64,000 bases of DNA from assembly GCA_934119965.1 (NCBI GenBank), contig CAKOTA010000005.1, positions 12,939 through 76,938 of the forward strand. The letters run 5' to 3'. Positions 8,597 to 39,273 of this stretch are shown here, in pieces. The stretch is from an uncultured Bacilli bacterium. Lineage in GTDB: Bacteria; Bacillota_I; Bacilli_A; RF39; UBA660. The notes beneath the pieces are model-generated. The model was given only the letters and a program-made list of their open reading frames with translations, did no database searches and was not told the origin of the DNA. Numbering within the stretch: the first letter of the stretch is position 1; each line of letters starts with the position of its first letter. A program made the position numbers and the translations under genes.

Positions 8597-8863
8597 TTAC
8601 TCCTTCCAATCAACGACAATTTTTTTCATAATATTTTTAATCATTGTCCATTCTTCTTCTGTATCTATATTTTTAAATGTTGGTTGTTCACTTGATTCAT
8701 CAACTACTGAAGAATAAAGTGCTATCATACCAGTTTCGTCAGTTTCATTAAAAGTATATATTACATATTTTTTACCAGTCTCCTCAGATTCAAAGCATAA
8801 TACTACTTCTGCTTCTCTTTCTACACCATTTTTATCTGTAGTTTTTATTATTTCTTTATTCAT
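8597..8863 (-). CDS. DUF1292 (YrzB-like) family protein
   Basis: The 88-aa acidic protein has a VEREAEVVLCFESEETGKKYVIYT pattern typical of DUF1292. A consensus promoter (TTGATA-17-TATAAT) lies upstream at ~8895-8925. Confidence 0.6.
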   Translation of the reverse strand: MNKEIIKTTDKNGVEREAEVVLCFESEETGKKYVIYTFNETDETGMIALYSSVVDESSEQPTFKNIDTEEEWTMIKNIMKKIVVDWKE

Positions 8864-14153: not shown

Positions 14154-15665
14154 CTATTCTGTAGTTATTTTATATTCACCACTTTGAATTATTTCATTAT
14201 TATTTGCAAATTCATCAAAGGAAATGTCATAACAATTATTTTTATTATTATCACACAATTGGTATATAGTTTCGTATTTATTAATCCAATTACCATATCC
14301 TTCACTATCATTATATTCACAATACCATTGGTTTCTATCTATTTTTTTAGTACAATTATGCTCCCCACAAATAAAATATTTATTTTCATATAAAGTTGTA
14401 TCTACAGGAGTTTCTCCCTCATCTAAAATTATATGAGTTGGAATAGCATTTGGTTTTAATAAATTAATATCAATTAATTTGAATCCATATATATCACATC
14501 TTATCTTAGTATTATATTCAATATCAGCTGTAGTTTGGGGAATTACTACTGTAGAATACTTAACATCATTAATATATATATATCCAATAGGATTAGTAAT
14601 AACAACTAATTCATTATCAACACCAACTTTTATATTAAACTTTTTCAAAACTCTTGCAATTTTACTCAATTTAGGTGTTATTTCAGTATTCCATACTCTA
14701 GCAATAGTCATTTTATCAGTCATACTTTTTGATTCTTCATCAGTATAGGAATGGATAGTAAAGTCTTTCTTTATATTACACTCCAATTCTTCGTTATTCA
14801 TATTACATTCATAAACAATACCATAATCTTCATCTTTTTTTAATTCTTCCCAAAGATTAACATAATAATTATCATTACTATTTTTTATTTGTTCATTATT
14901 TTTAATATTAGATAACAGATTACTTTTAGTACTACTATCTATATACTCAATAGAAATATAATCTTTTTTCTTAATTTCAACCTTATCGGTAGTTTTTATT
15001 TTAACACCATTAGATGTATCATATCCCTTTTCTTTAGATAGTTTATATAGATTATTAACACTTTCATCAATAGTTTTACCTTTAACATCTATTTCATTAT
15101 AAATCTCAATACAATCATCATTTAAACAGGCAACATCATTAACTTTGCCATTTTTAATAGTTAATACAAATGATGGATTAATTTCTATAAATACATAACT
15201 GATTTTTTCTTTTTCAATGTTGCTAATATTATCTTTAAATTTATTTATTTTTATATTAGTTATAAAATTATTAATAAAATATTTAACAAATAATAGTAGA
15301 ACAATAACTAATAATATTTTTCTAAATATATGTTTTTTCTTCTTAAATTCTATAACTACAAATCCATATTTATTTATATCATCATTATTGTAATTTTCTA
15401 TTAAACTATTATAATCAAAATTTTCTTTTTTCTTAAATCCTAACTCTTTTTTTTCTACATTTTTAGATAATTCATCTAAATTAGAGTAAAATCTAATGGC
15501 ATTTACTTTTTTATTAAATCTATCTACCTTTGCTTGAAGAGTTATTTTACTATTATTCTTCATTTTTTTAAAATCTTCATTATTATTTAAACGAATTAGG
15601 ATGGTTTGCTTACCTGATTTAATTTTTCTAAATTCTGTTTTTGAAACATTTATTTTACAGTTCAT
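14154..15665 (-). CDS. ASCH-domain N-terminus fused to a single-pass membrane protein with large Cys-containing ectodomain
   Basis: The N-terminal ~100 aa (ISVSKTEFRKIKSGKQTILIRL...) has an ASCH-like pattern, followed by a TM helix (ILLVIVLLLFVKYFI) and a ~370-aa extracytoplasmic region. Confidence 0.45.
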   Translation of the reverse strand: MNCKINVSKTEFRKIKSGKQTILIRLNNNEDFKKMKNNSKITLQAKVDRFNKKVNAIRFYSNLDELSKNVEKKELGFKKKENFDYNSLIENYNNDDINKYGFVVIEFKKKKHIFRKILLVIVLLLFVKYFINNFITNIKINKFKDNISNIEKEKISYVFIEINPSFVLTIKNGKVNDVACLNDDCIEIYNEIDVKGKTIDESVNNLYKLSKEKGYDTSNGVKIKTTDKVEIKKKDYISIEYIDSSTKSNLLSNIKNNEQIKNSNDNYYVNLWEELKKDEDYGIVYECNMNNEELECNIKKDFTIHSYTDEESKSMTDKMTIARVWNTEITPKLSKIARVLKKFNIKVGVDNELVVITNPIGYIYINDVKYSTVVIPQTTADIEYNTKIRCDIYGFKLIDINLLKPNAIPTHIILDEGETPVDTTLYENKYFICGEHNCTKKIDRNQWYCEYNDSEGYGNWINKYETIYQLCDNNKNNCYDISFDEFANNNEIIQSGEYKITTE

Positions 15666-17384: not shown

Positions 17385-17696
17385 TTATACATTAGTTTCA
17401 ACATTTTCTTCTTCAAAATCATTAATTCCTGTGACAATCTTTTCAATAACCTCAATTATATTACTGTATACAGCATTTGAAAGTTTATCATCGTCACCAA
17501 ATGAAGCATCTTTATCTATCTTAATATTATCTCCTTTTTCAAAATTTGAAAACAACGCATCATATAATTTTTTTCCATCAACACTTAATGTGCTTTTAGA
17601 AATTTCAAATATTTCTTCTGTCCCATTGTTAATTGTATATTTATCACTTTTATTATACATCGTATATGTTTTTGTCATATCTTTTCCACCTTTCAT
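17385..17696 (-). CDS. Small acidic protein, partner of PHP-ATPase (overlaps its 3' end by 44 nt)
   Basis: The 103-aa ORF is overlapped by the 797-aa gene on the same strand. A hairpin GAGAGC-AAAA-GCTCTC plus T-run terminator follows at ~17215-17240. Confidence 0.4.
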   Translation of the reverse strand: MKGGKDMTKTYTMYNKSDKYTINNGTEEIFEISKSTLSVDGKKLYDALFSNFEKGDNIKIDKDASFGDDDKLSNAVYSNIIEVIEKIVTGINDFEEENVETNV

Positions 17697-20046
17697 TAAT
17701 AGAATCTATTCCACCTTCTATGTTATCAGCAACAATTTTTAAAATATCATAATCCTTATCACAATATTCCAGTGCTCCATTTTGAATATATATTTTATCA
17801 TTTTCATCTTTTCCTATAAAAATAACATTATCAACATCTAAATTAACAATAAATTGGGGATTATGTGTAATTATAATGACCTGTCTATTTTTACTCATAT
17901 CATAAAAATCTCCAAGTATATTTTTCTTTATAGATGGTTGTGATACATCATCTTCAGGTTGATCAATTATATATATTCTATTATCATCAGTTTGATTAGA
18001 TATTAAATCAAAATAAATTTTAGAATTAAAACCTGATGATAATTCCTTTGTTACATCTTTATCACTAGCATCATTTATTGCTTTATCAATTAAAAAATAA
18101 TTATCTATTTCTTTATCTAATTCATTTTTTAGATTTATTAATTTATCATTATAAGAAATGTCTTTATTCCTATTACTAAATCTATCTGGGATAGTACTTG
18201 AATCAATTGAATTTATATCTTTTACACTTTTTCCTAAAACATTATTAATTAAAGTTAGTAAATTGGCGTTTGATACCTCTTTAGTTTTAGTCTTTGCAAC
18301 AAATCTGTATTTTCCAACCTTATTAGATGTTGTCGGTACTTTTTCCTCTTTTATATTAGGTTCATATTTAACTTTATTCCTGTTCTTATAATAGTAATTT
18401 ACAATATTTTCTGAAAAAGAATCCTTATTACTTTCATAATTTGCTATTTTTTCTGTTTCATCTGTTTTAGTCTTCTTTAGTACTTTATCTTTACTTGTGA
18501 ATTCATCATTAATAATATTTATTTTAGAAATTTCAAATAAATTTTGTTTAATTTTATTATTATATTTTGAAATTAATTTAATATTAGAATTTATACTATC
18601 ATTAATATATTTTTCATCTTCTTTATCAAAAAAATCATTTTCCTGTATTTTATCCAATAAAGAATTAATTGATTCAAAATATTCAACTATTTTACCTATT
18701 TTTTTTATTTTTGAATTAATACTAGTAATAGTTGCTTGAGTTACATTTTTAAAATTTAAAGATTTTGAAGTAGCCTCAATAACACATATATCAAAATTTG
18801 TTATTTTATTAAATGCATTACTTTTTTCTTCTTTATTTTTTAATATTGAAATATAATTTTCAATTTCAGATTTATAAATTTCAATATACTTGCTTACTAG
18901 TGGTTCTGCAGGGAAAAATCCATTTAAGAATTCATCACTGTCAAAAGTTTTATTTTCAAACATTTTTCTAATAGAACCTTGCCCATTGAATTTAGAAATA
19001 TTTGATTCAGGTATGGATGAGTTAATTTTAATTTTATTGTTTATTAAATATTCATCATAACTATCTTTAATTTTTTGGTCATTAAGGTAATTATAATTAG
19101 TTAACTTGTGAATAAGTAAAGATTTACCTATCGAATTATCTCCAATTATAACATTAATACCTTTAGAAAGCTTTATATCATATTTATTGTTGTCTATTTC
19201 AATATTAATACTATCTAAATATTTATCAGTAGTAGAATAAAAATTATTAACATAATTAATTCTTTTTGTATTTGTTACTGCCATTGCCAAACCTCTAAAT
19301 GTTGGTAAACATTTTAAATAAGTAAATGAAAAGTCATCATTTTCTTCTGGATATTTAGACCAATCATGACAATCAGAACCTGTTACGAATCTTAAAGTAA
19401 CATCTTTATACTTTTCTTTATTCTTTTCAATATAATTTTTATTAAATATTTCATTTCTTTTTCTCTTGAATTCAAACGATTCAAAATAATCCATGAAAAC
19501 TAATTCATCAAATTTTTCTTTTCCTAAACTCATTACATCGTGACTTCTTGTCTCTTTACTTGATAAGGTCTCTTTTTGATGTGCTATCATTACAACATTT
19601 AAATCTATATTTTTTAAAATATTAAGATATTTATTTTCAGAAAATGAATTTAATTCAATATCGTCATAAAATGGTTTATTGTTTTTTATATCAAATATTT
19701 CATTTTGTATTTTTTTTATTTTTTCTTCATCTTTATCATCAAAAATTGTAATTACATGTAAAACTTTTTTATCATATGTTACTGAAAATTCAACTGCAGG
19801 AAACACTTTTTTAATACTACCTTTGTTTTCTTCTTGCTTTAACTTATTATATATATTGAAATCAAAGTTATCGTGGTCTGAAATAGAACACATATTTATT
19901 TCTCTTTGATTTAGTTTTTCTATTAATAAATCTATATTATCTAAAGTAGATAAATCTACACAATCATCACTTTCTTTGTGTTTAGATGCAATAGAATGAA
20001 TATGAAAATCAACTTTATTCCCTGTTTCAATAATTTTTTCTATCAT
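17653..20046 (-). CDS. PHP-domain phosphoesterase fused to ABC/SMC-like (AAA_21/OLD-type) ATPase
   Basis: N-terminal PHP motifs are present (VDFHIHS, SISDHDNFD, AVEFSV, LHVITIF). The central Walker A is GDNSIGKSLL. The C-terminal Walker B/D-loop is IYIIDQPEDD and the H-loop is IIITHNPQF. Confidence 0.65.
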   Translation of the reverse strand: MIEKIIETGNKVDFHIHSIASKHKESDDCVDLSTLDNIDLLIEKLNQREINMCSISDHDNFDFNIYNKLKQEENKGSIKKVFPAVEFSVTYDKKVLHVITIFDDKDEEKIKKIQNEIFDIKNNKPFYDDIELNSFSENKYLNILKNIDLNVVMIAHQKETLSSKETRSHDVMSLGKEKFDELVFMDYFESFEFKRKRNEIFNKNYIEKNKEKYKDVTLRFVTGSDCHDWSKYPEENDDFSFTYLKCLPTFRGLAMAVTNTKRINYVNNFYSTTDKYLDSINIEIDNNKYDIKLSKGINVIIGDNSIGKSLLIHKLTNYNYLNDQKIKDSYDEYLINNKIKINSSIPESNISKFNGQGSIRKMFENKTFDSDEFLNGFFPAEPLVSKYIEIYKSEIENYISILKNKEEKSNAFNKITNFDICVIEATSKSLNFKNVTQATITSINSKIKKIGKIVEYFESINSLLDKIQENDFFDKEDEKYINDSINSNIKLISKYNNKIKQNLFEISKINIINDEFTSKDKVLKKTKTDETEKIANYESNKDSFSENIVNYYYKNRNKVKYEPNIKEEKVPTTSNKVGKYRFVAKTKTKEVSNANLLTLINNVLGKSVKDINSIDSSTIPDRFSNRNKDISYNDKLINLKNELDKEIDNYFLIDKAINDASDKDVTKELSSGFNSKIYFDLISNQTDDNRIYIIDQPEDDVSQPSIKKNILGDFYDMSKNRQVIIITHNPQFIVNLDVDNVIFIGKDENDKIYIQNGALEYCDKDYDILKIVADNIEGGIDSINERWKRYDKNIYDV

Positions 20047-20930: not shown

Positions 20931-21963
20931 ACATTTTAGTTTCAGGAAAAATCATATCAACCATATATTTAGCAATATTTTGTGATTTACCTATTGCAGG
21001 TCTGAAATGCATATGCACTCCAGGTACTGTGTTGATTTCAATTATTCTATAACTATCATCATTTTGTAATTTTTCTATTGAATTGGTCATATAATCAATT
21101 CCTACATATGGAAGTCCAGGAAATGCATCTAAAACTCTCATACCAATATCAATAACACTAGGATGTGCTCTATCAGTATAATCTTCACATATTCCTCCCA
21201 TAGCAACATTAGAATTTGGTCTTAAATATACTTTTTCTCCTAAAGTTGGAATAGTATCCATACTTATACCATTTGCTTTAATATATTTATACATTTCTTC
21301 ATCTACAAGTATTTCACATAAAGCATTTGTTCTTGGATTCATTCTACGATAATTTTCTATTGAAATTAATTCTTTTATAGAATGTTCCCCATCTCCATAT
21401 ACATGAGCAGGATCTCTATGAAGTACTGCATAATCTCCATTCTTTGTAACAAACACTCTATATTCTTTTGCATTAAAATATTCTTCTATTAGCACTTTAG
21501 TTTGTAATCCCCTATTTTGAGTTATCTTATCTATTGCTTTTAACAAATCGTTTTCAGAAGTTATATTTGTATAAACATCATAACCATGAGAACCAAAAAC
21601 AGGTTTTAAAACAACAGGGCAATCAAATACATTAAATGCTTTTAAAATATAGTCAGAGTCAGTTATATTGAATACTTCTCCCATAGGAACACTAATACCA
21701 TTATTTTGTAAAATATGTTTTGTTATTCCTTTATCTCCAGCAAGTATTGAAACATTATATGGCATTATTGATGAATCTCTATCATAGATTAATTCCTCAT
21801 GACCATTATAAGATGCTTTTATTAATTCTAAACTCTCATCTAATACTTCAACACTTATACCTCTTTTTAACATTTCATATATCAATATTTTTTGATTAGA
21901 ATGTAAATTTTTATAAATGTTTTCCATTTTACCATCTACTTTCGCCTGAATCGTGGCTTTCAC
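20881..21963 (-). CDS. ATP-grasp family ligase
   Basis: The 360-aa protein has an ATP-grasp fold pattern (VVLKPVFGSHGYDV..., EYRVFV, IEINTVPG). It overlaps the methyltransferase gene by 50 nt and the ESR-repeat gene by 35 nt. Confidence 0.7.
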   Translation of the reverse strand: MKATIQAKVDGKMENIYKNLHSNQKILIYEMLKRGISVEVLDESLELIKASYNGHEELIYDRDSSIMPYNVSILAGDKGITKHILQNNGISVPMGEVFNITDSDYILKAFNVFDCPVVLKPVFGSHGYDVYTNITSENDLLKAIDKITQNRGLQTKVLIEEYFNAKEYRVFVTKNGDYAVLHRDPAHVYGDGEHSIKELISIENYRRMNPRTNALCEILVDEEMYKYIKANGISMDTIPTLGEKVYLRPNSNVAMGGICEDYTDRAHPSVIDIGMRVLDAFPGLPYVGIDYMTNSIEKLQNDDSYRIIEINTVPGVHMHFRPAIGKSQNIAKYMVDMIFPETKMYEKGEENGYQKSLKRF

Positions 21964-22456
21964 TTGAACTACTATACGAAGTATAACTAGAACGAGTAGA
22001 ATCTTTTTTAGGTTTTGCAGGTTTTCTAACTAGTTTTTTTACACTACCTATAAGATCATCTAATTCATCATTAGATTGTTCTAACATTCTTAATTGTTTT
22101 TCTTCTTCTGATTCTCTTTTTGCTTCATCTCTTAATCTTTTTAATTCTTCAATTTTTTGTCTTCTTTGTTCTAAAGCTTGATTAATTCTAGGATTATTAG
22201 ATGTAATAGTAGGCATTTCTCTTTCTAACTTTTCTATTAAAGAATCAATATCATCCAAATTATTATATCTAGAATTATTTACTTGACCTCTAATATCACA
22301 TCTGCTTTCACTATCATTTCTACTTTCATTAGAAAAATTATTACTTGAATAACTACATCTACTTTCTCCAGTATCTCTACTTTCACTTGGTCTAGATACA
22401 TATGATGGAGTATATCTACTTCCTCTACTTTCACTATTATTTCTACTTTCTGACAT
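21929..22456 (-). CDS. ESR-repeat protein (Ser/Arg-rich termini, central coiled coil), candidate modification substrate
   Basis: The 175-aa protein carries seven ESR tripeptides (SESR/GESR/NESR) clustered at both termini and ends in ...SESHDSGESRW. The central segment is a charged helix. It lies 1 nt after the DUF3419 gene and overlaps the ATP-grasp gene. Confidence 0.5.
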   Translation of the reverse strand: MSESRNNSESRGSRYTPSYVSRPSESRDTGESRCSYSSNNFSNESRNDSESRCDIRGQVNNSRYNNLDDIDSLIEKLEREMPTITSNNPRINQALEQRRQKIEELKRLRDEAKRESEEEKQLRMLEQSNDELDDLIGSVKKLVRKPAKPKKDSTRSSYTSYSSSSESHDSGESRW

Positions 22457-22457
22457 T

Positions 22458-23306
22458 TTATTTTCCTCCTCTTTTTAAAATTAAAACACCATCTTTTTTA
22501 TCCTGCGAACTTCCTTCTAAAGCACTCTTAAATTCTACTTGTTGGAAGTTAAAAAATATCTCTTTTACTTTTCTTAAATCATCTATTTCTGTTCTAGGAT
22601 TAGAATTTCCTATATCGTATAAATAAGCAAAATATATTATATCTATTTTTTTTTGAAATTCAATTAATAAATCTCTATATTTTTTTAATATATCACAACT
22701 ATACATTAAACTTAAATAATCAGATATATTCGATAAAAACATATAATCGAAATGTTCATCTACTTTTAAATCTTTTAAACTTGTATTTATATAAGTAATA
22801 TTTGCATCCTTTATTTGTTGTTTTAATAAATTATACTTACTTTTTTCTAAATATAAATTTTGCCACAATTTGCTATTAGGATTAAAATATTTTGTATTAA
22901 ATAAAGAAGAGTTTCTTAATTCAATACCATTATTATCAAATTTAGATAATTGCTCTAACCAAAACATTTTACTTTCATCAGACATATCTAAACTTGAGAT
23001 AATACTATAATCTAAATTCATATTACTTTCAAACAAAAGTAAATTTATAAAATCTTCATAAGATAAATTTTTTAGAGCACTAATTTTTAGATCCATATAT
23101 GGTTTTGTTAATGGATTAATATCAAACGTTGTTATCTCAGCTGCTCCCTGTAATATTACATTTAATATATGGTCCGTTGAACCTGTTACTGTAATAACTT
23201 TTTTACCAGTTAAATTCAAATATTTCATATATCCAGCAATATTTTCAGAAGTAAAAGGATATATACTATTAAATCTTCCCATAACATTTTCCTTTACTTT
23301 TTGCAT
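22458..23306 (-). CDS. DUF3419 family protein (BtaA-like SAM-dependent 3-amino-3-carboxypropyl transferase fold)
   Basis: The 282-aa protein has the pattern VITVTGSTDHILNVILQGAAEITTFDINPLTKPYMDLKISALKNLSYEDF, which resembles the DUF3419 ITSAGxNxLDYL...AVDLNPxQ..LLELK signature. Confidence 0.5.
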   Translation of the reverse strand: MQKVKENVMGRFNSIYPFTSENIAGYMKYLNLTGKKVITVTGSTDHILNVILQGAAEITTFDINPLTKPYMDLKISALKNLSYEDFINLLLFESNMNLDYSIISSLDMSDESKMFWLEQLSKFDNNGIELRNSSLFNTKYFNPNSKLWQNLYLEKSKYNLLKQQIKDANITYINTSLKDLKVDEHFDYMFLSNISDYLSLMYSCDILKKYRDLLIEFQKKIDIIYFAYLYDIGNSNPRTEIDDLRKVKEIFFNFQQVEFKSALEGSSQDKKDGVLILKRGGK

Positions 23307-24738
23307 CTAAAAATCTTACTAAAACTTTATCTCTTTTAATTTCTTCTAAAGAATTATCTCTTAATGATTTAGTTGTGATACAAGTCTTATCACTTTCTAA
23401 TACCCAAGGGCATGGACTTACATTACCAAAATTATTTATATATATAAATTTATCTCCTGCAGGACATCTATGAACAAAATTAGGTTGTTTACCAAAATTG
23501 TAATTAACTATTATTTGTCCATTATATTTTTCTCTTAATTCATCAATTTGAGAAATTAATACTTCGTTTGGTACTGTCTTAACTAATGTTCTATCTTGTC
23601 CAGAAACTGGTTCCATTATTGAAAAGATTATTTCATCAGCTTGTAAACCTACTGAATCCAAAATCAAACTTTCTAAATCGTATTGATTATTTGAATGTAT
23701 AACAGAACCTATTCTTACTTTATTAACTGATTTTCTTAATGCTTCTAAACCTCTTATAGTTCTTTCATAAGTATTATTTCCTCTTACTGATTCATGTTCC
23801 AATTTATCTCCATCTAAACTAACATGTATCATTTTTAACTTTAATTGATTTAATAACTCTACTTTTTCAGGAGTTATTAAAGATGCATTAGTAGATATAT
23901 CAGTAATCAATCTTTCACTTGCATATTTTAAGATTTCTAAAATATCTTTTCTAATAAGTGGTTCTCCACCAGTTATCTTTAAATGTTTGAAATTATGTAA
24001 AACTAATTCATCTATAATATGATAACATTCTTCAGTAGTTAATTCCCCATCAATTTTTTTATTATTACAAGAAAATATACAATAAGAACAATTATAATTA
24101 CATTGATGTGTAATTTCCCAAATTGCCTTACCTTCATTATTTGGTAAAGTAAATTTACATTCCATACTATTTAAAAATTCATTAATTTTGTTTATATCAT
24201 AACCATTATCAGTATTAATTATTAAAAAGTTGTCTGAAAGATATTCTTCTAAATTATCTATTCTTTGTAGTTCAAATCTTTTTAATATATCCTCTTTGGA
24301 TAAATCACTTTCAATTAATCTCTCTAATCTTGTTTTATCAGAAGCAGTAACATAAATTATTTTATCAAACTTATCTCTTAGGTCATCATTAAGTATTAAT
24401 GCCCAATCAACAATTATTGTTTTATTATCAAAACAATCTAAATAATTAAATAAATATTTATACAATACCCCTTTATATTTTTCCATATATTCTTCATTAC
24501 TATAAATATATTTATTTAAAATTAAAGAATTTATTTCATCATATTCTTTTAATTCAGGAATTACATTTTTTAACTCTAAAATATATGAAGCATTTTTATA
24601 TAAACTTCTTCTAAAAATATCTACATCTACATAAATGTAATCAGGACTATATTTTAAAATATCCTCTGATATAGTTGTTTTTCCTGATGACATTCCACCT
24701 GTTATTCCTATTAATCTATTCATACCAACACATCCCAT
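23269..24738 (-). CDS. P-loop nucleoside/nucleotide kinase-like domain fused to radical SAM enzyme with SPASM/twitch-like C-terminus
   Basis: The N-terminal P-loop is GITGGMSSGKTT. The radical SAM cluster motif is CNYNCSYC and the GGEPL motif follows. Additional C-terminal Cys residues (HRCPAGD...SPCPW...CI) are present. Confidence 0.7.
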   Translation of the reverse strand: MGCVGMNRLIGITGGMSSGKTTISEDILKYSPDYIYVDVDIFRRSLYKNASYILELKNVIPELKEYDEINSLILNKYIYSNEEYMEKYKGVLYKYLFNYLDCFDNKTIIVDWALILNDDLRDKFDKIIYVTASDKTRLERLIESDLSKEDILKRFELQRIDNLEEYLSDNFLIINTDNGYDINKINEFLNSMECKFTLPNNEGKAIWEITHQCNYNCSYCIFSCNNKKIDGELTTEECYHIIDELVLHNFKHLKITGGEPLIRKDILEILKYASERLITDISTNASLITPEKVELLNQLKLKMIHVSLDGDKLEHESVRGNNTYERTIRGLEALRKSVNKVRIGSVIHSNNQYDLESLILDSVGLQADEIIFSIMEPVSGQDRTLVKTVPNEVLISQIDELREKYNGQIIVNYNFGKQPNFVHRCPAGDKFIYINNFGNVSPCPWVLESDKTCITTKSLRDNSLEEIKRDKVLVRFLDAKSKGKCYGKI

Positions 24739-26059
24739 ACTTTATTGGAGTAAATGCTGCTATTTTAGTATTCTTATCAGCATTCTCATATATATTCCAA
24801 TCTATATCATTTGAAACCATATTATAATTTTCTTTTTCTAATTCTTTTATAAGTTTATTTATTTCATTAGTTAAATCATTATTTTCTATATTAGGTTTAT
24901 TACTATGAATATATTGTGTTTTATTTACTACTTCTTTATTCTCGTTATATATTGGTGTACCAACACGATATGCTAAATAATGAAGTCTTAATTCGTGAGG
25001 CATTATTGATAAAATTAATTCTTTTGTTTTTATAATATCTTCTTTAGTTGATGATGGATAATCCAAAATAAAACTTGTTCTTATTCTATAACCAATTTTC
25101 TTTGTTTCTTCTATTACTTGTTTTATATAATTAATATCCATATCTTTATTCATTAATTTTAATAATCTTTCACTACCTGTTTCAATACCATAATGAACCC
25201 ATCTAAATCCAACTTTATACATATATTCTAAAAGTTCTTTATCATAACATTTAATACTACATAATGCCCCAAATAAACATTTGATATTTCTTTTTTCAAT
25301 TTCTTTACAAATTTCTATCATTCGTTCTTTATTGACAGTTGCATTATCATCTAAAAAGATTATTTTCTTTGTATTATATTTTTCTATTAACATTTCTATT
25401 TCATTTACAACATCTGTAACATTTCTTCCATTCCACTTACCAAAATAATATGGTGTAGTACAAAATTTACAAGTTCCAACACAACCTCTTGAAGTAATAA
25501 TAGTTCTTGTATCCATATATTTAGTAATATCTAATAAATCTCTATTAGGAATTGGTAACTTATTAAAATCATTTGTTAATATTTTCTTTTCAGTAAAGTA
25601 TATATCTTCTTTATTTTTTATAACTAAATTAGGAATACTTTTTAATTTATCTATATTATTAATATTTTCTATTACATCAGTAATAATTTCGTCTGCTATT
25701 CCTCTAATAACAACATCTATACCATTATCTAAAAATTTTTGATAAAAGTGAGTAGATGTTTTTCCTATCATTATGAATTTAGTAGGTTTATTTGTATTAT
25801 GAATTGTTTCAAATATATTTTGTATTGTTTCAGTAGTATGTAATGGTAATTGATAATCATAGACAAAAACAACTATATTTTCATCAGATAAATATTCATT
25901 AATATTATTATTCATTCTATTAACATCCATATCAATTACTTTTACTCTATCAAATTTTTTATTTATAATTGTTGCTATTTGTAATACATCTAATGGTTCA
26001 GCTAAAATAGACCTATTTGTAAATGGTTTATTTGCTGGATTAACTACTAAAACATTCAT
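24716..26059 (-). CDS. B12-binding domain radical SAM enzyme (class B rSAM)
   Basis: An N-terminal cobalamin-binding Rossmann-like region is followed by the radical SAM motif CVGTCKFC. The 447-aa gene is first in the operon and has an extended -10 TGCTATAAT upstream at ~26085-26110. Confidence 0.75.
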   Translation of the reverse strand: MNVLVVNPANKPFTNRSILAEPLDVLQIATIINKKFDRVKVIDMDVNRMNNNINEYLSDENIVVFVYDYQLPLHTTETIQNIFETIHNTNKPTKFIMIGKTSTHFYQKFLDNGIDVVIRGIADEIITDVIENINNIDKLKSIPNLVIKNKEDIYFTEKKILTNDFNKLPIPNRDLLDITKYMDTRTIITSRGCVGTCKFCTTPYYFGKWNGRNVTDVVNEIEMLIEKYNTKKIIFLDDNATVNKERMIEICKEIEKRNIKCLFGALCSIKCYDKELLEYMYKVGFRWVHYGIETGSERLLKLMNKDMDINYIKQVIEETKKIGYRIRTSFILDYPSSTKEDIIKTKELILSIMPHELRLHYLAYRVGTPIYNENKEVVNKTQYIHSNKPNIENNDLTNEINKLIKELEKENYNMVSNDIDWNIYENADKNTKIAAFTPIKYGMCWYE

Positions 26060-26198
26060 AATAAATCCCCCCTTAAAAGTTGGTTTCTATTATAGCACAA
26101 AATTCATTAAATAGCTATTCTTTTCTTGTTTTTATAAAAAAATACTATGATATAACTTATTTACCATTATTAGCAATAACATATCATAGTATTAATTT

Positions 26199-26498
26199 TT
26201 AATTTTTCTTAGGCAGTTTATCATAATCATACTTTTCCATAATTGGATTGAGTAAGTCATTTGCTTTTGTTAATTCTTCTACTGCTTGTTCTAGTGTATA
26301 TTCACTTTTACCTTCTTTAAGTAATTTTAAATGTTCTGTAACTTCAAATATTATAAATCCTACTTCTCTTGCTTTTTCTATTTTATTAAAATCAAATTGT
26401 AATAAATCAGTTTCTGATTCTTTATATTGTTCAATTAAGTCTTTTAAATCTTTACTGGATTTATTTGCATATTTATCTTTAGAAAAATAGAAAAGCAT
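26199..26498 (-). CDS. Hypothetical protein
   Basis: The 99-aa ORF is followed by a long hairpin terminator (ATACTATGATAT ... ATATCATAGTAT plus T7) at 26141-26195. GGTATCTA direct repeats lie upstream at 26596-26650. Confidence 0.4.
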   Translation of the reverse strand: MLFYFSKDKYANKSSKDLKDLIEQYKESETDLLQFDFNKIEKAREVGFIIFEVTEHLKLLKEGKSEYTLEQAVEELTKANDLLNPIMEKYDYDKLPKKN

Positions 26499-26677
26499 TT
26501 CTTCATTTTTTACTATTAATTATACTTTAATTCTATCATTTTTCAAAAAAATTGTCCACTTTACAATATTAAAATATAAGTTTATCAAAAAAATACCATA
26601 TTATTGGTATCTAAATATAATATTTAATATCTAGTGTGGTATCTAGATAAATCAAAAATAGTTAAAAATTCCTTATA

Positions 26678-26776
26678 AATAAAAGTATTCCCCTCTTTCG
26701 AGGGGAATTTCAGGGGGTTTTGGTTGCGCACTCTCATCTGTTGAATCGTAAGAGTGCTACGTGATATTATCACGCT
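26678..26776 (-). ncRNA. Candidate ~100-nt small RNA with consensus sigma-A promoter and intrinsic terminator
   Basis: On the minus strand, TTGACT-17-TATAAT sits at 26783-26811. Two internal hairpins follow (CGTGATA/TATCACG and GCACTCT/AGAGTGC), then the terminator UUCCCCUC-GAAA-GAGGGGAA plus a U-run. The unit lies directly downstream of the recG stop. Confidence 0.4.
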
Positions 26777-39187: not shown

Positions 39188-39273
39188 TGGTACCGGCCAA
39201 GGGACTTGAACCCTCACGATATTGCTACCAATGGATTTTGAATCCATCGCGTCTACCATTCCGCCAGACCGGT
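39188..39273 (-). tRNA. tRNA-Leu (anticodon CAA), type II with long variable arm
   Basis: The minus-strand sequence is ACCGGTCTGGCGGAATGGTAGACGCGATGGATTCAAAATCCATTGGTAGCAATATCGTGAGGGTTCAAGTCCCTTGGCCGGTACCA. A 7-bp acceptor stem, the CAA anticodon in a 7-nt loop, a long variable stem-loop, the T-loop GGTTCAAGTCC and an encoded CCA end are all visible. Confidence 0.85.

Follow-up and report, generated by a model that had tools for sequence, protein, structure and literature searches.

A stretch of 64,000 nucleotides (nt) from an uncultured Bacilli bacterium (contig CAKOTA010000005.1, positions 12,939 to 76,938; this whole stretch is called the window below) carries a gene for a protein of 175 amino acids (aa) in which the tripeptide Glu-Ser-Arg (ESR) is repeated. 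Analysis of this repeat protein, of the genes around it and of its homologues indicates that it is most likely the dedicated ribosomal polypeptide partner of a self-contained modification cassette, whose enzymes are two radical S-adenosylmethionine (SAM) enzymes, a DUF3419-family protein, an ATP-grasp ligase and, in most loci, a class I methyltransferase. With moderate confidence we read the protein as a covalent substrate of these enzymes, in which the Glu-Ser of the motif would be reactive and a helical core would act as a constant handle. This reading is favoured because synteny is strict, because the gene is predicted to be translationally coupled and has a strong Shine-Dalgarno (SD) sequence, because short invariant motifs sit inside fast-evolving disordered tails, because these tails move, multiply or shrink without loss of the enzymes, and because the nearest characterised relatives of the radical SAM enzymes modify peptides or proteins.

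Sequence and predicted structure of the repeat protein

The protein reads MSESRNNSESRGSRYTPSYVSRPSESRDTGESRCSYSSNNFSNESRNDSESRCDIRGQVNN at one end and ... SSSESHDSGESRW at the other. Translation of the open reading frame (ORF) gives seven ESR tripeptides (residues 3, 9, 25, 31, 44, 50 and 172) and one ESH (residue 166), six of the ESR falling in the first 52 residues, and the ESH and the last ESR in the final 10. Both the count of seven and the clustering toward the ends had been reported in the first-pass annotation of this stretch, and both are borne out. Seven ESR were reached by none of 200,000 composition-preserving shuffles of the protein. The window, with a G + C content of 24%, has 45 ORFs of at least 150 aa (15,833 aa altogether), and seven of the eight ESR found in them belong to the repeat protein, leaving one for the remaining 44 ORFs.

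An AlphaFold2 model built on a 39-sequence alignment has helices at residues 66-78 and 88-142, with a predicted local distance difference test score (pLDDT) of about 72-85, and residues 1-61 and 143-174 are predicted to be disordered. The helices agree with the central charged helix that had been proposed from the sequence.

Conservation of the repeat protein family

Among 5.8 billion proteins, a word-indexed search returned 71 relatives, none of them named and none with a Pfam domain, and a profile search over all 1.84 billion 50%-cluster representatives delimited the family to 104 clusters only. Searches of Pfam, NCBIfam and PADLOC with the repeat protein and seven variants gave nothing but sub-threshold coiled-coil noise (CENP-F, SMC, JetC and LmuB), and a PDB profile search found no relative, with coiled-coil noise again below threshold.

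The homologue search that had been proposed as a check on the repeat found the motif kept. The N-terminal MSESR is invariant in the family alignment, the C-terminal ES[HR]DSGESRW is nearly invariant, and in 86 cluster representatives no other tripeptide is as common as ESR. These representatives contain 420 motifs, of which 366 end in R, 31 in N and 23 in H, and S or G precedes the motif in 82% of cases. The full motif, [S/G]-E-S-[R/H/N], is wider than the ESR noted earlier and occurs mostly in doublets, a motif-to-motif spacing of six residues being far ahead of any other (119 cases). The core signature YNxLxxIDxLIxxLE was found in 58 diverse cluster representatives, and the core columns Y63, N64, L66, D68, I69, D70, L72, I73 and L76 are without variation. 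Outside the motifs the tail sequence varies freely and is enriched in Ser, Tyr, Gly and Asn.

In the window subfamily the motifs stand as doublets with this spacing of six residues. Trp directly follows the C-terminal doublet in all 50 complete type-A homologues (the window subfamily), and Tyr, Cys or Phe is most often next to the internal doublets of this subfamily. An aromatic residue was considered as a further part of the ES[RHN] motif and rejected as inconsistent, standing at +1 in only 86 of the 420 motifs.

The Ser of the motif is encoded by AGY in 63 of 66 cases, compared with a window-wide Ser background of 42%. Such a bias fits a Ser under unbroken selection that was never free to change.

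The usual coding of the motif, in the window gene and in homologues, is GAA-AGT-AGA, and this purine-rich nonamer resembles an extended SD sequence (GAAAGGAGG).

Synteny across loci and hosts

Forty-one loci were collected by four routes. Distant family members were looked up, one genome per species and, separately, metagenome contigs were scanned, and further look-ups started on the enzyme side, from the kinase-radical SAM enzyme, as an unbiased control for synteny. As far as the contigs reach, all 41 have the order B12-radical SAM enzyme, CoaE-radical SAM enzyme, DUF3419 protein, ES[RHN] protein and ATP-grasp ligase. Wherever flanks exist the repeat gene lies between the DUF3419 and ATP-grasp genes, and it was not found without the enzymes elsewhere, an occurrence that the first-pass annotation had named as fatal to its proposal. 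Genes outside the cassette differ from locus to locus. Two otherwise complete cassettes, L014 and L018, lack the methyltransferase and have Amidase_3 or YibE_F genes after the ATP-grasp gene instead; the core is therefore a five-gene set.

Conservation of the cassette enzymes is of the kind seen in housekeeping genes; at distances where the repeat protein falls to 36-42% identity they keep 50-75%, and the motifs, termini and core of the repeat protein are retained there too. The hosts are uncultured Bacilli/Bacillota metagenome-assembled genomes, mainly from the human gut, with a G + C content of 24-28%. These bacteria are common in human-gut metagenomes, single enzyme alleles recurring on hundreds of contigs.

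The phage and plasmid collections contained no homologue of the kinase-radical SAM fusion, only similarity to its radical SAM domain at 31% identity or less (the best plasmid-borne match being MftC, 30%), and a mobile-element origin was rejected on this ground.

Expression signals of the repeat gene

The repeat gene is the fourth gene of a close-packed minus-strand operon (Table 1). An SD sequence, GGAGG, lies 8 nt 5′ of its ATG within the last codons of the DUF3419 gene, and it is kept in 14 of 14 loci at 6-10 nt before the ATG. The junctions on both sides of the gene are 1-nt gaps or TAATG overlaps, and this arrangement is conserved across loci. Together, the SD sequence and the junctions show a gene that is predicted to be strongly translated and translationally coupled to both neighbours, and the strength of the SD sequence suggests that the repeat protein is made in excess over the enzymes.

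In the window the gene starts 1 nt past the DUF3419 stop (TAA-A-ATG), as had been described. The 35-nt overlap with the ATP-grasp start that had been described along with it is an artefact of taking the longest ORF, which is reached from GTG 21963 only. The ATP-grasp N-terminus common to all homologues, MENIYKNLHSNQK, is encoded in the window from ATG 21927, 1 nt past the repeat-gene stop.

Tail architecture and alleles

Members of the family range from 117 to 230 aa and carry 2-9 motifs in disordered tails attached to a constant helical core. Three layouts occur with the same enzymes throughout: both tails, as in the window protein; an N-tail only, the chain ending shortly past the core in ...KGFHR or ...NKLK; and a C-tail only, the chain beginning at the core and ending in GESRW. 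Some of the N-tail-only members have the motif variants ESN[YF]G or ESH, and many members of the family are without doublets, their motifs being single or spaced by 9-16 residues.

The lone His and the C-terminal Trp of the window protein had been listed as plausible modification sites. As obligatory sites they can be set aside, whole subfamilies with the same enzymes having no C-tail. The C-terminal Trp carboxylate as the general acceptor of the ATP-grasp, on the logic of pearlin or RimK, was rejected likewise, since the subfamilies without a C-tail keep an ATP-grasp that is 69-75% identical.

In-frame deletion alleles are present within the window's species complex. A 117-aa form (MSESRNN-NLDDID...; P0018, L015 6001-6354) that has lost nearly the whole N-tail was found on more than 23 contigs, among relatives of about 90% identity, and other strain-level alleles (P0015 and P0020) were shortened via recombination between repeat codons. 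Locus L018 has lost the C-tail but retains an out-of-frame remnant, GAAAGTAGATGGTAA (ESRW-stop), at 8716-8736 directly before the ATP-grasp ATG. This remnant indicates that tail-less forms arise through deletion, and its position suggests that the same bases double as the translation-initiation region of the ATP-grasp gene. Across the sequences compared, the number, position and length of the tails are fluid, and the motif and the core are fixed.

Two further observations were made on the family. In the metagenome assembly of L024 (5998-6525) the gene has an in-frame stop at codon 37 and is otherwise 91% identical, which may be a pseudogene allele or a sequencing error. A conserved extra module, (L/G)(T/S)YEDWLKTDPWIARGGLSSxxEMHxAYxEW, stands between motifs and core in some N-tail-only members (P0208, P0218, P0221, P0233, P0245, P0252, P0255, P0265, L035 and L041); it has no Pfam match, and it is duplicated in L041/P0265.

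Genes and features of the cassette

Features of the operon and of the repeat protein are listed in Table 1. Alternative starts would give a DUF3419 protein of 274 aa (ATG 23282) and a methyltransferase of 227 aa (ATG 20912), and the likely start of the kinase-radical SAM fusion is ATG 24723, giving 484 aa. No riboswitch was found upstream of the operon at the Rfam gathering score.

Table 1. Features of the repeat protein and its operon in the window
Feature	Position	Strand	Evidence
ES[RH]-repeat protein, 175 aa	21929..22456	minus	ORF translation, motif count, homologue alignment
N-terminal tail, residues 1-61, three ESR doublets	22274..22456	minus	AlphaFold2 pLDDT <50, predicted disordered
ESR motifs of the N-terminal tail	22442-22450, 22424-22432, 22376-22384, 22358-22366, 22319-22327, 22301-22309	minus	sequence
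Helical core, residues 62-142, family signature YNNLDDIDSLIEKLE	22031..22273	minus	AlphaFold2 and conservation across family
C-terminal tail, residues 143-175, end SESHDSGESRW	21932..22030	minus	predicted disordered
Motifs of the C-terminal tail	ESH 21953-21961, ESR 21935-21943	minus	sequence
B12-type (class B-like) radical SAM enzyme, 447 aa, CVGTCKFC	24716..26059	minus	Pfam Radical_SAM 3.9e-19
CoaE-like P-loop kinase fused to radical SAM/SPASM(twitch)	23269..24738	minus	Pfam CoaE, Radical_SAM, SPASM
DUF3419-family SAM-dependent transferase-like protein, 282 aa	22458..23306	minus	Pfam PF11899
Stand-alone ATP-grasp ligase, cyanophycin-synthetase G-domain/GshB type, 348 aa	20881..21927	minus	Pfam, NCBIfam, PDB
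Class I SAM methyltransferase, 233 aa	20229..20930	minus	Methyltransf_11 7e-21
Extended -10 TGcTATAAT, then SD AAGGGGGG, before first cassette gene	26089..26097	minus	consensus match only
Terminator-like hairpin after recG	26687-26708		sequence

Family resemblance of the cassette enzymes

The best NCBIfam matches of the B12-radical SAM enzyme are ApyD (2e-38) and the methyl-coenzyme M reductase glutamine C-methyltransferase family (3e-32), both below cut-off, and its closest solved structure is MgmA (9CCB, 8.6e-15). The B12-binding domain PF02310 gave a weak match only, on a homologue of the enzyme.

The kinase-radical SAM fusion matches the Pfam families CoaE (3e-12), Radical_SAM (3e-23) and SPASM (2.5e-3), and its closest solved structures are SkfB (1e-13) and PqqE (6e-9). 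Among 25 sequences of 62-90% identity, the P-loop residues G10, G13, G18, K19 and T21 are invariant, as are D39, the radical SAM cysteines C212, C216 and C219 and the auxiliary cysteines C424, C442 and C484. The fused kinase retains its P-loop, catalytic Asp and lid arginines.

The DUF3419 protein passes PF11899 with 56.6 bits versus a cut-off of 28.2, the match being limited to profile positions 6-129 of 385, the SAM-binding third at the N-terminal end, and a homologue carries the NCBI name 'DUF3419 family protein'. No sequence relative was found in PDB, and the AlphaFold2 model is poor (pLDDT 61), with weak class I methyltransferase matches only. The top NCBIfam matches of the ATP-grasp ligase are cyanophycin synthetase (TIGR02068, 1e-68; 231.9 bits versus a cut-off of 850, over positions 165-475 of 862 only) and GshAB (6e-58; 197 bits versus 425). 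In PDB it matches 7wac (5e-41) and 3ln7 (3e-37), and it is 34-35% identical to the GshB module of GshAB across 93% of its own length. The PDB matches of the class I methyltransferase are generic.

A reading of the cassette as a defence system was rejected. Matches to the prokaryotic viperin models of PADLOC (pVip) are weaker than those to generic maturases, the radical SAM fusion reaches 59.5 bits versus a cut-off of 180 with the NCBIfam model viperin_w_prok, and PADLOC has no model that fits either the ATP-grasp ligase or the DUF3419 protein.

Proposed function of the cassette

All reaction assignments below are inferences from family resemblance. If the repeat protein is a covalent substrate, its helical core would take the role of a leader, as a handle for docking of the enzymes and/or for oligomerisation, and each of the repeated motifs would be an acceptor site, its invariant Glu and Ser being the residues that react. 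The B12-radical SAM enzyme could C-methylate an sp3 carbon, as MgmA does on a protein and ApyD on a peptide, and the SPASM enzyme could abstract hydrogen to give a cross-link or an oxidation. The fused P-loop kinase may phosphorylate a hydroxyl group, for which the Ser is the obvious candidate, and the DUF3419 enzyme may use SAM as the donor of a methyl or 3-amino-3-carboxypropyl group. The ATP-grasp ligase would convert a carboxylate to an acyl phosphate and join it to an amine or hydroxyl; since the subfamilies share no conserved terminus, this carboxylate is probably on the side chain of the motif Glu. The methyltransferase might add an optional cap. That the kinase and the two radical SAM clusters have intact or invariant catalytic motifs supports this reading of the repeat protein.

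Several findings weigh on the other side. The closest characterised relatives of the ATP-grasp, the GshB module and the G domain of cyanophycin synthetase, and likewise CoaE, take small molecules or alpha-carboxylates as substrates and not the side chains of proteins, and the only characterised members of the DUF3419 family act on lipid (betaine lipid synthase; PMC10685587). The protein, which has 117-230 aa and a folded core, would be unusually large for a precursor of RiPPs (peptides made by ribosomes and then modified post-translationally). No cassette enzyme reaches the curated cut-off of any specific NCBIfam family, which makes the reaction types extrapolations. No PqqD/RiPP recognition element (RRE) family is among the Pfam matches of any cassette protein, although divergent RREs could escape such a search. 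Finally, no conserved protease or transporter is among the flanking genes of the fetched loci, from which it follows that the product would be an intact modified intracellular protein, or else a small molecule freed by a housekeeping hydrolase.

More tentatively, the cassette may put a new multi-site modification on the Glu-Ser motifs, or carve out a new peptide-derived cofactor or metabolite, the product serving abundant, uncultured, low-GC Bacilli of the gut in a conserved role like those of primary metabolism. It would do so with enzyme types new to polypeptides, by which we mean the CoaE-like kinase-SPASM fusion, the BtaA-like DUF3419 transferase and the GshB-like ATP-grasp.

Alternative readings

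The alternative that fares best, although we judge it unlikely, is a covalent carrier in the style of LysW/LysX. The ATP-grasp would tether an amine metabolite to the motif Glu, the kinase, radical SAM enzymes and methyltransferases would work on it, and a hydrolase encoded elsewhere would release the product, leaving the protein to be re-used; the repeats would raise throughput like tandem acyl carrier proteins. The pairing of an ATP-grasp with a kinase and the invariant Glu suit LysW-like logic, the ATP-grasp, CoaE and DUF3419 families consist mostly of small-molecule enzymes, motif copy number varies freely, and the cassette contains no protease or exporter. LysX does occur weakly among the ATP-grasp matches (2.9e-9), but with 36.4 bits versus a cut-off of 275.6. 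The repeat protein has neither a LysW-like zinc-finger globule nor a C-terminal EDWGE, there is no conserved releasing hydrolase, and the invariant Ser beside the Glu, together with the peptide-modifying relatives of the SPASM and B12 enzymes, favours direct modification.

Somewhat more doubtful still is a non-covalent role, as a scaffold, chaperone or regulator of a small-molecule pathway, nucleotide- or amino-acid-derived, in which the motifs would be binding epitopes. The conserved helical core could serve as an assembly hub, and the CoaE, GshB and DUF3419 families have a small-molecule pedigree in a cassette without RRE, protease or exporter. The radical SAM domain of the fusion, joined to a nucleotide-kinase fold, also resembles nucleotide-modifying enzymes (MoaA about 1e-20, pVip 1.5e-21), but less strongly than it resembles the peptide or cofactor maturases AhbD, MftC and StsB (5.6e-31 to 1.5e-29). 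Short invariant tripeptides whose number varies, on disordered tails that may stand at either end, are a pattern typical of sites for enzyme recognition or acceptance rather than of scaffolds, and the excess over the enzymes suggested by the SD sequence argues in the same direction.

The first-pass annotation had taken short acceptor repeats beside an ATP-grasp gene as a hallmark of graspetide and RimK-type substrates. On that view, Ser-Glu macrolactones would form inside the 6-residue doublets, or a poly-amino-acid tail would be added to the C-terminus. The Glu and Ser are indeed invariant, a fixed 6-residue doublet is compatible with a small ring, and the generic Pfam RimK ATP-grasp domain model passes on the cassette enzyme (27.8 bits versus a cut-off of 21). 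The RimK family itself (TIGR00768) gives 47.9 bits versus a cut-off of 143.4 and the PDB RimK 3vpd only 7e-4, and there is no graspetide maturase model among the 24 NCBIfam families matched by the ATP-grasp (E ≤ 0.01), the best being cyanophycin synthetase and GshAB. By these matches the ATP-grasp is clearly of the cyanophycin-synthetase G-domain/GshB type and not of the RimK or graspetide type. The members without doublets and the many without a conserved C-terminus also speak against such products, and we consider them improbable. The earlier proposal of a candidate substrate next to an ATP-grasp gene thus survives in its substance, the motif being conserved and never apart from the enzymes, and not in its analogy with graspetides and RimK.

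A generic low-complexity coiled-coil passenger of the operon, functionally independent of the enzymes, would account for the coiled-coil noise that makes up the sole database matches of the protein, but is close to excluded by a position and coupling that are invariant in 41 of 41 loci, by the absence of the family from anywhere else among the 1.84 billion representatives and by a number of ESR that 200,000 shuffles did not reach.

Neighbouring genes

Between recG and the cassette lies a 99-aa ORF (26199-26498, minus strand) without family match and with promoter-like sites upstream (26519-26558). Conservation was seen in the closest relative alone (L006, 84%), so this ORF is probably outside the cassette. 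Directly downstream of the cassette (17385-20046, minus strand) two genes resemble a defence-type pair. One encodes a 797-aa TrlF-family AAA-like ATPase (NCBIfam 1.2e-36), which has weak PADLOC matches to Ppl, GajA and PtuA; the other, a 103-aa ORF without family, overlaps it. In L010 and L011 an ATPase of weak similarity (23% identity) is encoded just upstream of the cassette. A PADLOC scan, the only search made with it, gave no match for a 503-aa ORF at 14154-15665 (minus strand). A tRNA gene at 39191-39273 (minus strand) is the sole Rfam match in the window at the gathering score.

An NrtR-like NUDIX regulator gene and a second NUDIX gene were found near the cassette in two distant loci (L001 14088-15427 and L003 1963-3272), downstream of it in one and upstream in the other; the pair is not near the cassette of the window.

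Novelty and significance

A literature search found nothing relevant to the repeat protein or to the enzyme combination. The system is absent from Pfam, NCBIfam, PDB and the searchable literature, and its precursor design and enzyme set are without described counterpart. If the substrate role is correct, this would be an undescribed substrate-plus-maturase system in bacteria common in human-gut metagenomes, and could reveal new chemistry, for example that of a SPASM enzyme joined to a kinase, of a DUF3419 enzyme whose acceptor is a protein and of a GshB-like ligase with a protein substrate. A precursor built as a folded helical handle that bears multi-core tails, N- or C-terminal and interchangeable, is unusual and could suit engineering. 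We regard the system as a solid, testable genome-mining lead and not as a demonstrated discovery.

Comparison with known systems

In the LysW/LysX and RimK/S6 systems, an ATP-grasp enzyme works on Glu carboxylates in the tail of a small acidic protein, and in the LysW pathway the next step is taken by a kinase. The cassette would fit such a logic, but its ATP-grasp falls outside the RimK/LysX subfamily, radical SAM enzymes are present, and the motifs are several and internal where those systems have a single C-terminal Glu. The acceptor of RimK is a protein ending in Glu, whereas the repeat protein ends in Trp, or in Arg or Lys in the tail-less subfamilies. It also differs from LysW as a carrier of about 54 aa built on a zinc-finger globule with a C-terminal EDWGE.

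The cyanophycin synthetase G domain and the GshB module presumably share the acyl-phosphate chemistry of the cassette ATP-grasp. The latter is a stand-alone protein of 348 aa without the Mur-ligase-like M domain of CphA1/CphA2 (N-G-M) or a GshA domain, and CphA and GshAB extend the alpha-carboxylate of a small peptide, whereas the repeat protein family has no conserved terminus.

The sole functional link of the DUF3419 family is the betaine-lipid synthase BtaA/BTA1 (PMC10685587). In the betaine-lipid pathway a SAM-dependent alkyl transfer to a hydroxyl group is followed by class I N-methylation, and a class I methyltransferase also ends the cassette. The cassette protein is 274-282 aa long compared with about 400 aa for BtaA and covers the N-terminal third of the profile only; its acceptor would be a protein, that of BtaA is diacylglycerol.

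The closest characterised relatives of the B12-radical SAM enzyme both use polypeptide substrates: MgmA makes 2-methylglutamine in methyl-coenzyme M reductase (PMC11796369), and ApyD makes beta-methyltyrosine in the RiPP aminopyruvatide (PMC10635010). The cassette enzyme is far below the cut-offs of the MgmA/ApyD families (132 versus 750 and 112 versus 360). Mycofactocin (MftA/MftC) and PQQ (PqqA/PqqE) resemble the cassette in having a SPASM enzyme with a co-encoded polypeptide, primary-metabolism-like conservation and no exporter. The fusion scores 103.9 bits versus 265 for MftC and 75.1 versus 381 for PqqE, and the cassette lacks an MftB/PqqD-type chaperone or a peptidase. The mycofactocin and PQQ precursors are 20-30 aa long with one core (C-terminal Val-Tyr or Glu...Tyr), an architecture different from that of the repeat protein.

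Repeated-core RiPP cassettes with radical SAM/SPASM maturases include the uncharacterised His-Xaa-Ser repeat system HxsA-D and the three-residue-motif cyclophane peptides. The cassette differs from them in a precursor of 117-230 aa with a folded helical core and tails at either end, in having no RRE, leader peptidase or exporter in the cluster, and in its set of CoaE-fused radical SAM, DUF3419 and GshB-like ATP-grasp enzymes, for which there is no described counterpart. It is not an HxsABCD system, since HxsB gives 59.2 bits versus a cut-off of 370 and the repeat protein matches no NCBIfam family. What it has in common with such cassettes is a polypeptide with many copies of a tripeptide, whose gene is translationally coupled within an operon that also encodes a pair of radical SAM enzymes (SPASM/twitch type in one case), and, as in RiPP systems generally, a ribosomal precursor gene beside its putative modifying enzymes, here in the same order in 41 of 41 loci. 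A repeated-core polypeptide encoded among radical SAM and ATP-grasp maturases is a known logic.

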